Shown here one piece after another: positions 121 to 64,000 of a DNA stretch of 64,000 bases; positions within the stretch are counted from its first letter, which is position 1; every line of letters begins with the position of its first letter. The position numbers and the translations under genes were made by a program. Source of the stretch: Eledone cirrhosa (taxonomy: Eukaryota); assembly GCA_964016885.1 (NCBI GenBank), contig OZ024741.1, positions 190,650,001 through 190,714,000 of the forward strand. Reading direction: 5' to 3'. The notes under the pieces are model-generated. The model was not told the DNA's origin and did no database searches. It worked only from the letters and a program-made list of their open reading frames with translations.

Positions 121-476
121 TTTGAAAATTAGAATTAGTGCTCTGAAATAGCGATATATATATGAATGTATATATAATGTATTTTGCAATACACTGTATG
201 CGTAATTAAAAAGCATTTTGAAGACCATATGCTATTGTTTTAAAATAGTGACAATGTCACTTATTTAAATTTTCAGCAAACAGGGGAGATAAACTGACAG
301 AGCTCTGTTTCGTACTTTTTGGTATTTAACAAAGCTCACTACTCCTCCTGTTTGCTGAAAATTATGTGTGTTGGATTCTTATAGAATTCCAGTAATAATC
401 AGGAACTAATTATATATACACTATATATACATTCATATATATATCGCTATTTCAGAGCACCAATTCTAATTTTCAA
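121..476. repeat. Inverted repeat (arms ~121-177 and ~422-476) with nested inner stem 269-288/342-363; probable Penelope-like pseudo-LTR remnant
   Basis: ttgaaaattagaattagtgctctgaaatagcgatatatatatgaatgtatatata is the reverse complement of 422-476 with one mismatch; (TA)n context. Confidence 0.8.
289..339 (-). ncRNA. Degenerate type I hammerhead ribozyme (U3-A8 core variant)
   Basis: Minus strand: GUGAGCU UUGUUAA AUAC-caaaaa-GUAC GAAA CAG-agcu-CUG UC AGUUUAU; stems I-III form, GUC site present, A6 mutated to U. Confidence 0.55.
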
Positions 477-611
477 TTTCTGCTGGGCCGGCGACCACTC
501 TGTAAAATCAGTTCCTGGTCCTTGTGCAATTGACCAGGGCATCTCGAATCTTTTGCTGATATTATCGGCCTCTCACAGCATCCAGCATCGGTTGGGGAAA
601 GTTGTAGAAGG

Positions 612-1435
612 CTGGTTGGCAGAATCGTTAGAATGTCGGAGAAAATGCTTTGCGGCATTTATTCCGTCTCTTTACGTCCTGATTTGAAATCCTGCCAAAG
701 CCTACTTTGTCTCCTTTTGGGGTCGATAAAATAAAGTAACAATAATGCACTGCGGTTGATTTAATCAACTTTCAGTCTCTCTGAAAATTTCTGGCCTTGT
801 GCCTCTAGTAGAAATCATTATTATTATTGTTATTGCGGTGGATTGGCAGTATCAGTAGAGGGTTGGACGCCATGCTTTGCAGCATAGAGTTACGCCTCTT
901 TACGGTCTGAGTTCAAATCCTGCAGAGGTTAACTTTGCCTTTTATCCTTATGGGGTCGATAAAATAAAGTACCAGTAATGCACTGGGATAATTGCAGGCC
1001 TTGTGCCAAAAATAGAAACAATTATTATTATTGTTATTGCTCTGATACAATTTATGTTGATGGTGATTGTTGCTATGGGTGGTATTGACTATTGACTATA
1101 AATTGAATTATTGGAGGCAATATTGATTGACAACTTGCTAAATAATTAAAATATACTTCAATCATATTTGCCCTTATAATTAGCTGACTGCATTATATTT
1201 GTTGTTAGTAACCATATTATAAACATTGGTGGTGAATATTATAAATAGGGCGGTGAATTGGCAGTATCAGTAGAGGGTTGGACGCATGCTTTCTAGCATA
1301 GTTACGTCCCTTTACAGTCTGAGTTCAAATCCCACCGAGGTTAACTTTGCCTTTCATCCTTACGGGGTCGATAAAATAAAGTACCAGTCATGTACTGGGT
1401 AATTGCTGGCCTTGTGCCAAAAGTAGAAACAATTA
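612..1435 (+). mobile_element. Three tRNA-type SINE copies (~612-820, 836-1028, 1248-1435)
   Basis: Shared ~190-bp consensus ggattggcagtatc...gagttcaaatccc (B-box-like)...gtcgataaaataaagtaccag...gtagaaacaattatt. Confidence 0.85.
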
Positions 1436-1449
1436 TAAACATTGGTGAA

Positions 1450-2020
1450 GTGGTTTCGGATACAGCAAGAGTGGGTAGCTATGGTTATTGTTCGTTGTTA
1501 TATATTACTGGGTAACTGGGTATTATGGGGTTACAACGGTGACTAACTATGGATTATGATGTGAAAGTGTGTGGTTATAAATTGGGGGCTAACTATGGAC
1601 AACAGGGGAGATATATAGATATTCTTGCAAACCATGTAGTATTGAGTTATAGTTGGTGGTTATATATTGGTGGGTAACTCTAGACTATGGTGTTATAGTT
1701 GGTGATTATATAAGGGTGGGTAACTGGGTATTATGGTGTTATAGTTGGTGGTTATATATTGGTGGGTAACTCTAGACTATGGTGTTATAGTTGGTGATTA
1801 TATAAGGGTGGGTAACTGGGTATTATGGTGTTATAGTTGGTGGTTATATATTGGTGGGTAACTATGAATTATGTGGGTGGGTTCTACAGATATTTGTGGG
1901 AACTGTGTAGTATAAAATTATAGTGAGTGGTTATATACTGGTGGGTAATTAGGGAATTTCTGGTTATAGTGGGTGGTTAGATGTTAATGGATAACTATAA
2001 CCTATGAGGTTATAATGTGT
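1450..2020. repeat. GT-rich minisatellite, 46-bp unit arranged as a 92-bp dimer in its core (1645-1865)
   Basis: tagactatgg recurs at 1681 and 1773; units degenerate toward the edges. Confidence 0.85.
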
Positions 2021-2629
2021 GGGTCAAGGGCCATGTTTCATTTGGACATTCCATTTGGTAATGTTTCTACAACTTGATGCTCTTCCTAACACTATCTACT
2101 TTACAAAGTGCATTTGGGATTTTTTATTATGACACTAGCACTGGAAAAATTGTTTTGTTCCAAGGAAGACTAAAGAGCTCTCAGTATCCTATATTATCTC
2201 TGTTCATTTATTTGCCAATCACTTTACAGAGTGTATTGGATGAATCACATTACACCAGCCCAAGGGATGTTGTAATATCCTCAGCATCAATAAAGAGTCT
2301 CTTCTACCTTACATTTTCTCTGTTCACCACAATCAGAGGGTTGTCTCATCCCCACCAAGAAGCAGTACATCTGTAAGCCAACGTTTGTAGTGTATCACTG
2401 AAGGAATATTTACCAGTCAGTCAGATGGATATCTTTTGGATATGATCATCGATATCAGTGTTTGTAGCAGTGTTACTGACCCATATAAATGAGTAATACA
2501 TCAATGTCAGTCTAACTTTAGTTTTGTAAAGGATCAGCAATTGATAATGGCTCAAGTATTTCCTGGTCTGAAAGAGAAAGTTCAGTCTTTAGGATAAAAT
2601 GTTAGGATTATCATAGATACATCAAGGGC

Positions 2630-3020
2630 AGTGGATTTGCAGTATTGGTAAAACATCAAACAAAACACTTTGTAGCATTTATTTATGTCATTCAAAGATC
2701 AAATCATGCTGAGTTCAACTTTTCTTTTCATCCTTCCAGGGCCAATAAAATAAAGTACTCATCAAGTAATGCAGTCAATTTAATCAACTTTCCCCACCCT
2801 TCAAACTACTAAAGACCATTATTTGAGACCATTGGATTGGCAGAATCGGTAAAGTGTCAGACACCATGCTTTGAAGCATAGAGTTATGGCTCTTTACGTT
2901 CTGAGTTCAAATCCCGCCGAGGTTAACTTTGCCTTTCATCCTTACGGGGTCAATAAAATAAAGTACCAGTAATGCACTGGGATAATTGCTGGCCTTGTGC
3001 CAAAAGTAGAAACAATTATT
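2630..3020 (+). mobile_element. Two SINE copies (diverged 2630-2800; 2833-3020)
   Basis: Match to the SINE consensus. Confidence 0.8.
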
Positions 3021-3152
3021 ATAGATACATCAATATAATGTTTAAAACAATTATATAAAAATATATTTTAAAAACCACAATATTTGTACTGGTCATAAAA
3101 TATTAAGATTATATACTCTTTTTACATTTTTAGGTTTGATAATATTTTCAAA

Positions 3153-61720: not shown

Positions 61721-61845
61721 GTAATATGGATAATGGACAAGAAAAAGAGCTCAACTATATACATAGGGAGTTATAAAATTATATATATAAATATAAAAAA
61801 TATATATTAAAATATGAATACCTGTATAAAATTAGGAGCAAAGTA

Positions 61846-62048
61846 TGTAGATAAATCTACCAAAATATACTGTAGTGTTCAATCCGTATGAAGAACTCAA
61901 TGTAATCCAACTATCATGAAAAGAGATGTATTCAACATTTTTTTTCGATGAAAATCACAGGAAAACAGAGTCTTTCATGATATTTGGATTACATTGAGTT
62001 CTTCATACGGATTGGACACTACAGTATATTTTGGTAGATTTATCTACA
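61846..62048. repeat. Inverted repeat (~76-bp arms) upstream of the Penelope-like ORF, with decayed hammerhead-like loop (61927-61967 -)
   Basis: Arms are reverse-complementary; loop reads UGUUUUC CUGUGA...GAAA...GUU GAAUACA. Confidence 0.85.
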
Positions 62049-62204
62049 CACACACACACACACACACACACACATATATATATATATATATATATATATA
62101 TATATATATAAAACGAAGGAGTTGTGGTAAGGAAACAGATGGATCATAACGCACCAAAGTACTCAATACTTGAGGTAGTAGAGTGGGTAATAGGAACCAG
62201 TAAG

Positions 62205-62298
62205 ACCCCGACGGCTGAGCTCAAGCCGTTTCGACGGCTAATTCTGGACTAAATGAAAATTTATCCTGGTATTTAAATAGCCGATCTTCTCAAGGGGT
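62205..62298 (-). ncRNA. Type I hammerhead with compensatory U3-A8 core, GUC site
   Basis: ACCCC UUGAGAA GA-u-CGGCUA...UAGCCG-UC GAAA CGGCU-ugagcuc-AGCCG UC GGGGU. Confidence 0.85.
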
Positions 62299-63564
62299 AA
62301 TTCCATATATGGTCAATGTGATTGTCAAAAGTCAGTAGTAATTCTGTGATTGCAAATTAGTAGGAAAGATGGTGGCTAAACCTGCCAGTAGGAGAAAGAG
62401 GGGAGGGGTGGAGTAGACCCAATCAAGCGTTGGTAGTGCCAGCTACAGCTGGGCATGAGGTCAAAGAAGATACTGGGGAGGGGGAGGGGGAGGAAGTCGG
62501 AACGGTAGGTAGAACAATGAGGAGTAAAAATATATATGAAAGAAAAAATACTGAGGGTGAAGAAAAGCGAATAGGTGTAAAGGAAAAAGTAAAGCAAGTT
62601 CTACGACCTAAGTCTCTAGCTATTGTTAGGCTAGATAAATAAATAAAGAAAGAAAGAAAGAAGTAAAGAAAGAAATAAAGAAATAACGAAATAAGTAAAT
62701 GAACTAGGTGGGACGGAATAGGCAAGGACCCTTTTAAGAGGTATAAGTACGTAAATCATACGGTGACGGGTCAACAAATGGGGCCAAACTACTAAAGAGA
62801 CTACCACGAAATAAATAATAAAGGTTTCTATCCCGGGCCCAATGCCAGCAACCACCCAGTGCAGCAAAGTAAACTAGTACGAGATAATAATTCTGAGTCC
62901 CGAAAAAAATATATACTAATGCTAACTCTAAAAGATCTTAAACAAGCTACATGAAAGTTCGTACGAAGTAAAGGTAGGATACGGAAAAATAAATTCAGAA
63001 TCCACCCCGCCCAAAAGAAAAGCGAAGAAAGAAATACTGAAACGAGAAAATAAGGCGTAAGTGCCACTAAGAAATATAGAAGGCACGGAAAATAGTGGGA
63101 GCGGTCGGAAAAAGGGGGCAAGTATCCGGGGTCTAAACCAACTGCTATAAAAAGCGGAGTCCGCCAAATCTATCATAGACTAGGGGAGGGGTGGGGGTAC
63201 TAAGGCTACAAGGGGCCAAAGGGCAGCCTCGGGTGGGCGAGAAAAGACGCCGACAAAGAAGAAGAGCTGGGGTAGAAGGACTAAGTAGGGATGGGGGGAA
63301 GGAATAAAGGAAGCGATAAAAGAATAAAAAGAAGATCTTACGTCTCCCTTGGCAAGCAGGGGTTACCCATTGCAAAATCGGCAAGTGGGGTGTTATAGCC
63401 CTAGTCTACCCCCCCGGGTCATTATGGGGTTTGAGGGCGAGGTAAGTCCTACGCAAGCTATGTTTACATGCAGTAACCAGTTCATCTTTCTTGTTTAGGA
63501 GTTGGTCCGTCGAAAACAGCATTTGTAAAGTTTCCTCCGAGCATAAATTGCACGGACGGCGTCC

Positions 63565-63885
63565 TATATAGGACTTACCGCATGTGACTTCAAGACCCGG
63601 CTATACCAACATAGACATACCTTCCGAAACCCGGCCCGGCGTCACGCCACTACACTTTCGGGCCACATATGGGACCTCAAGGACAACAACATCACCTATG
63701 ATCTCACTTGGAGATTACTGTCTAGAGCCAATTCTTACACGGGAGGACGCCGTCCGTGCAATTTATGCTCGCAGGAAACTTTACAAATGCTGTTTTCGAC
63801 GGACCAACTCCTAAACAAGAAAGATGAACTGGTTACTGCATGTAAACATAGATTGCGTAGGACTTACCTCGCCCTCAAACCCCAT
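63565..63885 (+). pseudogene. GIY-YIG endonuclease C-terminal half of a Penelope-like element (no start codon; absent from the ORF track)
   Basis: YIGLTACDFKTRLYQHRHTF...TTLSGHIWDLK...CNLCSQE...LLNKKDELVTACKH. Confidence 0.9.
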
Positions 63886-64000
63886 AATGACCCGGGGGGG
63901 GGGGTAGACTAGGGCCAAGGGAGACGTAAGATCTTCTTTTTATTCTTTTATCGCTTCCTTTATTTCCTTCCCCCCATCCCTACTTAGTCCTTCTACCCCA

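Follow-up and report, generated by a model that had tools for sequence, protein, structure and literature searches.

Penelope-like elements (PLEs) of the Hydra clade, a group of C-terminal EN+ (endonuclease-carrying) elements, include the Octopus bimaculoides family Hydra-1_Obim (Craig et al. 2021, PMC8557442). As set out in the available text of that source, they consist of just one open reading frame (ORF) joining a reverse transcriptase (RT) to a GIY-YIG endonuclease, with the motifs RW(K/R), DKT, CxCX5C, CxxC and CxH, and they combine (TA)n targets with a 3' type I hammerhead ribozyme (HHR), a one-sided tail, and tandem and inverted 5'-truncated copies. A tail at only one end is common in PLE pairs, and how inverted and tandem copies form is described there as an open problem (PMC8557442). 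In Schistosoma and other metazoans, minimal PLE hammerheads show features that recur in the DNA described below: a palindromic helix III, a U3-A8 core variant and opposite-strand pairs 100-700 bp apart, in PLEs that are mostly truncated (Cervera and De la Pena 2014, PMC4209133). For non-LTR retrozymes (lacking long terminal repeats), dependence on PLEs has been proposed (Cervera and de la Pena 2020, PMC7229834; Li et al. 2026, 10.64898/2026.07.22.740005), and the PAc Poseidon element of Anolis has two internal start sites in vitro, where it also cuts both strands, extends them and takes uncleaved RNA (Frangione et al. 2024, PMC11167929; all as far as the accessible parts of these sources go). 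The subject here is a 64,000-nucleotide stretch of contig OZ024741.1 (assembly GCA_964016885.1, positions 190,650,001 to 190,714,000), referred to as the window, with ten long inverted repeats, or hairpins, that are compared below with these systems.

The hairpins are probably head-to-head pairs of 5'-truncated copies of Hydra-clade PLEs, and of ORF-less monomers with like ends, which lie in (TA)n and carry predicted type I hammerheads, each pair having likely arisen from both ends of one cut TA tract that primed at a fixed pair of sites in one template lineage. Each window hairpin belongs to a high-copy family (841-3492 first-look candidates per query, 40 scored), and every hairpin is made of two 5'-truncated copies of one element, head to head. 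The 3' ends cluster at two fixed sites, a long and a short end, both abutting (TA)n. The two sites are 83 nt apart in families A, C and H, 85-88 in B, 85 in D and about 75 in I, and a constant 83-85-nt tail ruler is rejected as a general rule by F (132), G (about 29) and E (about 37). Pairing was scored on 80 head-to-head pairs of families A, B, C, D and H, pairs overlapping by more than 30 nt having been dropped beforehand; 8 pairs extended past the retrieved sequence and in 15 one end could not be classified, leaving 57. A long end is joined to a short end in 54 of these, 3 are long+long and none is short+short (p about 2e-13 against 0.5), with 102 long and 75 short ends among the unpaired ones. 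Families D and H, which are ORF-less, alone give 12 long+short pairs out of 13. Since the one-sided tail is already published, these counts quantify a trait known from the accessible text of PMC8557442 and extend it to ORF-less monomers.

All ten inverted repeats listed in a preliminary description of the window were recovered, in place or a few bases off, with arms that are 94-100% complementary over 59-260 nt per ungapped block. Their earlier bounds were often short, the one-sided 3' tail having been left out; 63268-64000 is the core of a 2.9-kb inverted repeat that runs from 62107 to about 65072, beyond the end of the window, and the fold at 54486-54604 is no hammerhead in itself and forms the axis of the family J hairpin. 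That the hairpins hold hammerheads stands with a reservation for G, H and F, where the HHR is decayed, lost or displaced. Of three hammerheads said to lie beside PLE coding sequence, the coding fragments were found (44613-45453, 61074-61722 and 63409-63909), but there is no long hairpin at 44-45 kb and the neighbour of that fragment is only half a hammerhead without GAAA. The features are as follows, the hammerheads being predicted folds and long and short referring to the two 3' ends (UTR, untranslated region; MFE, minimum free energy):

121..476, minus: family G hairpin; monomer without ORF, about 312-325 bp; left arm at long 3' site, right arm continues beyond 476
about 290-340, minus: decayed family G HHR with U3-A8 core, read by eye
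28678..30128, unstranded: family B hairpin, made of two copies of the 3' UTR from an autonomous Hydra-clade PLE; left long end and tail, right short end
28794..28844, minus: family B type I HHR fold; A4 core (CAGAAGA), 3-bp stem II; weak, not adopted by MFE
30054-30104, plus: sister fold of family B with a stem II change
35912..36240 (right bound approximate), plus: family H hairpin; copy truncated 3' of the HHR; left short, right long end
37209..37487, unstranded: family C hairpin; palindromic stem III; no parent ORF linked
37257-37317, minus, and 37389-37449, plus: canonical minimal HHRs of family C
37483..37749, minus: second family I copy, abutting the C hairpin; decayed HHR at 37537-37616
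39004..39430, unstranded: family I hairpin; left arm reads through long end; no parent ORF linked
39135-39215, minus: family I HHR; 39247-39301, plus: partial fold
44613..45453, minus: decayed Hydra-type PLE coding sequence; thumb/GIY-YIG part on minus, inverted RT piece 45268-45453 on plus
near 44107-44165: half hammerhead without GAAA, beside the preceding PLE fragment
54176..54453, plus: family E copy; ORF-less monomer of 409-432 bp; canonical HHR at 54360-54409
54453..54740, plus: family J hairpin; axis 54485-54605; HHR 54630-54684, its 3-8 pair broken in this copy
54834..55690, unstranded: older family B hairpin; left short end, right long end
54854-54912, minus, and 55524-55582, plus: HHR-like folds of the older B hairpin
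55780..55956, plus: short family B fold-back; HHR-like fold 55806-55852
56447..57139, unstranded: family D hairpin; ORF-less 557-561-bp monomer family; left long, right short end
56712-56845, minus: family D HHR with long stem III
57199..57393, unstranded: short rearranged family B terminal fragments
60531..62051, minus: family F insertion; hairpin 61843-62051, tail, Hydra-type ORF start 61722-61074, internal deletion, 3' UTR, short end at 60531
60575-60706, minus: family F HHR; stem II of about 105 nt
62107..64000, on to about 65072, unstranded: family A hairpin; left long, right short end; junction 63563-63565
63563-63909, plus: family A GIY-YIG C-terminal fragment
62205..62298, minus: family A type I HHR; U3-A8 core, 54-nt stem II region, 6-bp stem III; MFE adopts the three-way fold

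Families A and B are the 3' parts of autonomous elements, B occurring at four places in the window. A tandem family A unit of 3572 bp (locus L072) holds an open frame of 720 amino acids with YRDD and YIG motifs, frames of more than 600 amino acids lie at loci L077 and L080, and a search for this single-ORF RT/GIY-YIG frame gave 1998 homologues at E<=1e-20 among 8000 candidates. In both families the frame is a single ORF with an RT and with GIY-YIG at the C-terminal end; it contains RLRWR, with R instead of the K of RWK, and HSDKTG, of which DKT is also present in the family F fragment of the window, in its linker the motifs CNCPDRSIC and CNCRNRADC (CxCX5C), and around the conserved E and N the motifs CNLC and CDLC (CxxC) and CKH (CxH). 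No CxxC precedes YIG, and the absence of CCHH was read by eye. The ends of A and B abut (TA)n, and 3' HHR folds with variant cores were found. A motif match to the clade as described in the available text of PMC8557442 places both families among the Hydra-clade PLEs; the 3572-bp unit exceeds the length of less than 3 kb that the source gives as a general, not a strict, trait. Assignment to the Naiad PLEs was rejected on the C-terminal endonuclease, DKT instead of DKA, and the presence of HHRs.

Family F has a Hydra-type endonuclease frame upstream in the same orientation at 3 loci and family J has one about 1.1-1.4 kb upstream, likewise in the same orientation, at 3 of 14 other loci (distances for the two families together about 0.5-1.4 kb). 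The proposal that the hairpins are truncated or non-autonomous PLE products is supported by these links, since the arms of A and B lead to long RT-GIY-YIG frames and those of F and J to the upstream endonuclease frame; homology of the arms to PLE termini thus holds, and the termini could be tied to an ORF in these four families and not in C and I. A frame beside family C at L068/L287 was set aside as the ORF of C, being in opposite orientation and of unproven membership, and no frame was present in two extended family I loci. The family F copy at 60531-62051, its 3' UTR broken up by other repeats, carries a deletion from amino acid 218 into the 3' UTR and looks like a non-autonomous unit in the making. 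Frames of other PLE types, one with CxxC before YVG, were recognised by eye at L074 448-1968 (minus) and L080 6121-6900 (minus), and therefore non-Hydra PLEs appear to be present in the genome as well.

Families D, E, G and H are, on their sequence, ORF-less tandem monomers of 310-560 bp built like retrozymes. Their head-to-tail periods are 557-561 bp in D (6 distinct loci), 312-323 in G (4), 515-517 in H (3) and 409 and 432 in E (2), their longest ATG frame is 32-64 amino acids and no PLE protein match was obtained for any of the four. Type I HHR folds are present in copies of all four, one per unit, with two same-strand folds in L276 (H) and two folds in L265 (G). Like the non-LTR retrozymes of the accessible parts of PMC7229834 and 10.64898/2026.07.22.740005, they are low-GC head-to-tail monomers with one type I HHR each, and the retrozyme-like part of the earlier proposal is borne out to this extent. 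In contrast to those retrozymes, they occur here mostly as dispersed partial monomers, dimers and hairpins, and bear the two-end, inverted, TA-target signature of PLEs, a line of evidence not found in the accessible parts of those papers. Close to the D copies at L286 and L301 lies a complete Hydra-type frame, which was considered as the ORF of D and not counted, its orientation being opposite.

A type I HHR descriptor that permits a covarying 3-8 pair gave 6 matches in the window, all inside a hairpin or at most 200 bp from one (16% of the window). In 60 block-wise dinucleotide shuffles the mean was 0.35 and no shuffle exceeded 2. With a looser descriptor the fold at 56712-56845 was picked up as well, bringing the descriptor-level folds to 7, together with a lone 24-point match at 3424 that lies inside the shuffle range of 0-4. 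Homology to intact folds of other loci revealed 10 further decayed or partial folds, and the one at about 290-340 was recognised by eye, so that the total of about 18 (7 descriptor-level, about 11 decayed) agrees with the "more than a dozen" first counted, and enrichment over shuffled controls is found both in the window and in the genome sample described below. An Rfam scan of the window returned no hammerhead at E<=5 and only noise resembling microRNA hairpins. Dimers of PLE hammerheads were reportedly described by Lunse et al. in 2017. Narrower descriptors miss U3-A8 and long-stem folds, and counts in the genome sample by the type I descriptor are lower bounds. Among 12 chosen related folds, 7 stem II pairs are changed on both sides and 95.6% of cells are paired, compared with 37-58% in slid controls; the covariation score was reached in 0 of 500 shuffles, a result subject to the relatedness of the folds. 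Four window hairpins, when folded, formed long arm-to-arm duplexes on both strands, and therefore the hammerhead in most hairpin copies would be trapped in a long duplex and read-through transcripts would be long double-stranded RNA (dsRNA).

The inner ends of the hairpins bear on how the arms were made. The arm reaching further 5' is the long-ended one in 22 of 49 pairs and the short-ended one in 12, with 15 equal, and this therefore fits independent priming. In family A the partner arm is unbeaten as the closest copy in 18 of 23 pairs (4 with ties), and the window copy has 40 minority variants common to both arms against 8 differences. The arms of family B differ like any two copies (3/14), and because these are unhomogenised, the sharing of variants in A likely dates from insertion and not from later homogenisation. 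Only 2 of 70 short family A copies start at the predicted cleavage site, with 40 of 70 starting 31-50 nt upstream, and the template would therefore span that site; tandem read-through into the element start was also seen. Of the looped junctions that were resolved (27 in number), filler of 3-27 nt is present in 16, an overlap of 1-6 nt in 9, and 2 are blunt. The microhomology test was run against all copies, a single reference being confounded by variants, and is suggestive only, the filler perhaps being in part lineage variation. The pattern resembles microhomology-mediated end joining.

Priming at two sites from a cut TA tract is the simplest reading because of the end anatomy and the in vitro data on PAc, which, as proposed for the present elements, has two tail-bounding RT start sites, an AT-rich target and an uncleaved template (PMC11167929, accessible part). 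The GIY-YIG endonuclease would cut (TA)n on both strands, each 3' end would serve as primer on RNA that is uncleaved, tandem or circular, at a site rich in TA, and the two complementary DNAs (cDNAs) would stop independently, often at hammerhead stem II, before being joined by microhomology or templated-filler end joining. ORF-less monomers may borrow the same enzyme in trans, and the hammerhead may process the source transcripts. PAc belongs to a different clade, and the formation of inverted pairs is not addressed in the accessible part of its description (PMC11167929).

The motif GCTCC follows the long end in families A, B, D, F, H and I and, in all of these otherwise unrelated families except F, closes as GCTCC...GAGC (L072 2985-3010; L077 near 2155-2180; L108; L276; window near 38985-39003). 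This stem-loop is a candidate protein-binding or RT-start signal.

In the main rival explanation the elements are the same, and the second arm is produced by snap-back and extension of the cDNA followed by endonuclease resolution at the other terminal site. Such a fold-back accounts for the private variants common to the arms of family A and for arms that start at the same position around a palindrome (15/49); the tail is attributed to endonuclease-mediated resolution in the available text of PMC8557442, and the D. virilis enzyme is cited as cutting tail-holding DNA (PMC11167929, accessible part). It is nevertheless unlikely, as 12 of the 34 unequal pairs have the short-ended arm reaching further, either site is found as the end of unpaired copies, (TA)n adjoins both short and long ends and, for PAc in vitro, both tail ends are RT start sites (PMC11167929). 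Two independent insertions into one TA tract, followed by deletion or gene conversion, would draw on the role of TA tracts as hot spots of insertion, where elements from several families lie nested; neither 54 long+short pairs out of 57 nor direct 5'-to-5' junctions without TA would be expected from it, and the family B arms lack homogenisation. The pairing counts largely refute this reading, which is now very improbable.

Equally improbable is an origin as miniature inverted-repeat transposable elements (MITEs) or as DNA transposons of the fold-back type, with duplicated TA targets and hammerheads as passengers. Inverted arms with TA bounds suit such elements, and 32 of 90 sampled hairpins are unattributed, some of which may be DNA elements. 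Most family members, however, are single arms with no fixed symmetric terminal inverted repeats, their inner ends differ at every locus and their outer ends fall at two fixed asymmetric sites, and the arms run on into RT-GIY-YIG frames or tandem monomers. This refutes a MITE origin for A, B, D, F, G, H and J and leaves it only for the unattributed families. A fold-back artefact of assembly at (TA)n tracts, raised at the outset, would suit the few cases of identical arms (260 nt at 56531-57139; 3017 nt in L071), but it is hardly credible because the arms differ (median identity of 92% in the sample), the tails are one-sided and the loops are locus-specific. Strand-switch joints joining opposite strands at the same positions near the family A hammerhead are also present in Logan contigs of other public runs, as are the joint that links copies head to tail and, at the short site, loose ends in TA; these runs may include the source animal, X1 and X2 being one sample and possibly that animal, and they are not recorded as RNA. 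The inverted pair at L071 145-6542, a 3-kb family A pair with zero substitutions between its arms, is either a very recent insertion or a local assembly collapse.

Several observations weigh against two-site priming by Hydra-clade PLEs and their ORF-less followers. By blastn no ORF-less family matches the UTR of any autonomous family, no ORF link was found for C and I, and Pfam gave no RT or GIY-YIG match for the PLE frames, whose domain calls are motif-based. With its A4 core and a stem II of 3 bp, the family B fold is weak. Long+long pairing occurs in three cases, and in the window several arms continue through the long end; shared variants do not separate one RNA molecule from two RNAs of one locus; and only 11 of the 27 looped junctions lack filler (8 with at least 2 nt of overlap; 16% expected). 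The priming site of PAc is not homologous to the cut DNA (PMC11167929, accessible part), whereas the ends here look TA-rich, and the 32 unattributed hairpins also count on this side.

Eighty evenly spaced 10-kb stretches (L156-L235) of the 3.0-Gb genome were sampled. They contain 85 HHR folds, against 2-3 in each of five shuffles, and 90 hairpin clusters, 67 of them TA-flanked; 42 of the 85 folds lie inside hairpins, which cover 8% of the sampled sequence. Hydra-type coding matches occur in 20 of the 80 stretches, and 58 of the 90 hairpins are attributed, through a fold or a Hydra-type frame inside them or through a match to a terminus that bears a fold. The folds form 27 clusters at 80%, with a U3-A8 core and U4 in 24 of 85, an A4 core in 11 and a short stem III in 63; the A4-core fold of family B is thus among the commonest in the sample though it is the weakest predicted ribozyme. 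Weighted by chromosome class, the genome is estimated to hold 3.1x10^5 folds (bootstrap 2.1-4.1x10^5) and 3.3x10^5 hairpins (2.6-4.1x10^5), with about 128 Mb of arms or about 4% of the DNA. The window, described earlier as having roughly one hairpin per 6 kb, is typical of the large chromosomes, where the mean is 1.24 hairpins per 10 kb.

Compared with the Hydra clade in the available text of PMC8557442, the genome holds many lineages (30-57% protein identity to A) as opposed to one family in the published list, its units measure 3.2-3.6 kb with 3' UTRs of 1.1-1.3 kb against a published length of generally less than 3 kb, and its tails are mostly 75-88 nt against 30-40 bp published for PLEs. 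Further differences are the cores of U3-A8 and A4 type and the long stem II and stem III, while the family B HHR shares with the Hydra table an extra T on both sides of stem II; the HHR pattern of Hydra-1_Obim has no exact match in this genome. The density is about 100 folds per Mb; published counts are about 2,000 plus 1,300 for S. mansoni, about 9,000 for X. tropicalis and, for axolotl with its 28-Gb genome, up to 120,000 retrozymes, a rough comparison as the descriptors differ and the sources are accessible in part. Already published are the Hydra clade, including one family from octopus, PLE copies in inverted arrangement, the tail, opposite-strand hammerhead pairs, U3-A8 cores and retrozymes as PLE derivatives. 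That such families are poorly described in cephalopods, as first stated, needs qualifying, one octopus Hydra family and its HHR being in print (PMC8557442, supplement). A search that covers subscription literature thinly turned up no printed account of this density, of the counts for pairing and shared variants, or of the PLE insertion signature on monomers of retrozyme-like build.

The other long frames tested are pieces of RT and endonuclease of the long interspersed nuclear element (LINE) type and one Pif1-like helicase piece. An open LINE-type endonuclease-RT-zinc frame of 1089 amino acids lies at 16593-19862 (minus), with low-complexity frames upstream at 20343-21424 and decayed relatives at 46243-51211; we take it to be Tx1-like. 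Two LINE tails with zinc knuckle and restriction-like endonuclease, presumably R4/Dong-type, lie at 22012-23605 (plus), each adjoining (AAT)n. The Pif1-like helicase fragments at 23978-24786 (minus; Pfam PF21530) are likely a Helitron remnant, and frames at 7925-8272 and 36670-37035 (minus) look by eye like pieces of a Tc1/mariner transposase, with no Pfam match. A dispersed repeat of about 150-250 bp that resembles a short interspersed nuclear element (SINE) occurs in both orientations and also in tandem (51841-51976, 53903-54039, 60760-61020 and 9472-9762); it splits the family F copy and forms the inverted pair I11/I16, spaced 2 kb apart.

In octopus, dsRNA potential and adenosine-to-inosine (A-to-I) hyper-editing are unusually high, and the repeats at their source are unannotated (PMC5625713). 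It is a tentative suggestion, for which the odds are somewhat unfavourable, that this genome has the densest known hammerhead load, that its hairpins record two-site, both-strand priming common to Hydra-clade PLEs and retrozyme-like parasites and that, if the host is an octopod, they are a main source of octopus dsRNA potential and hyper-editing; the link to hyper-editing is a hypothesis that depends on host and expression. Repeat pipelines could file such hairpins as MITEs, SINEs or unknowns, and the main text of a 2026 repeat annotation of O. vulgaris makes no mention of hammerheads or ribozymes. The mobilisation of animal retrozymes has so far been argued from co-occurrence and sequence kinship. 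At least 27 hammerhead sequence families are on offer here, including U3-A8, A4 and long-stem variants, and the genome provides natural products of the reaction, an estimated 3x10^5 of them, together with young families whose frames are intact and ORF-less monomers that bear the same signature of insertion. The questions of how inverted copies form and how retrozymes are mobilised would therefore become directly testable.

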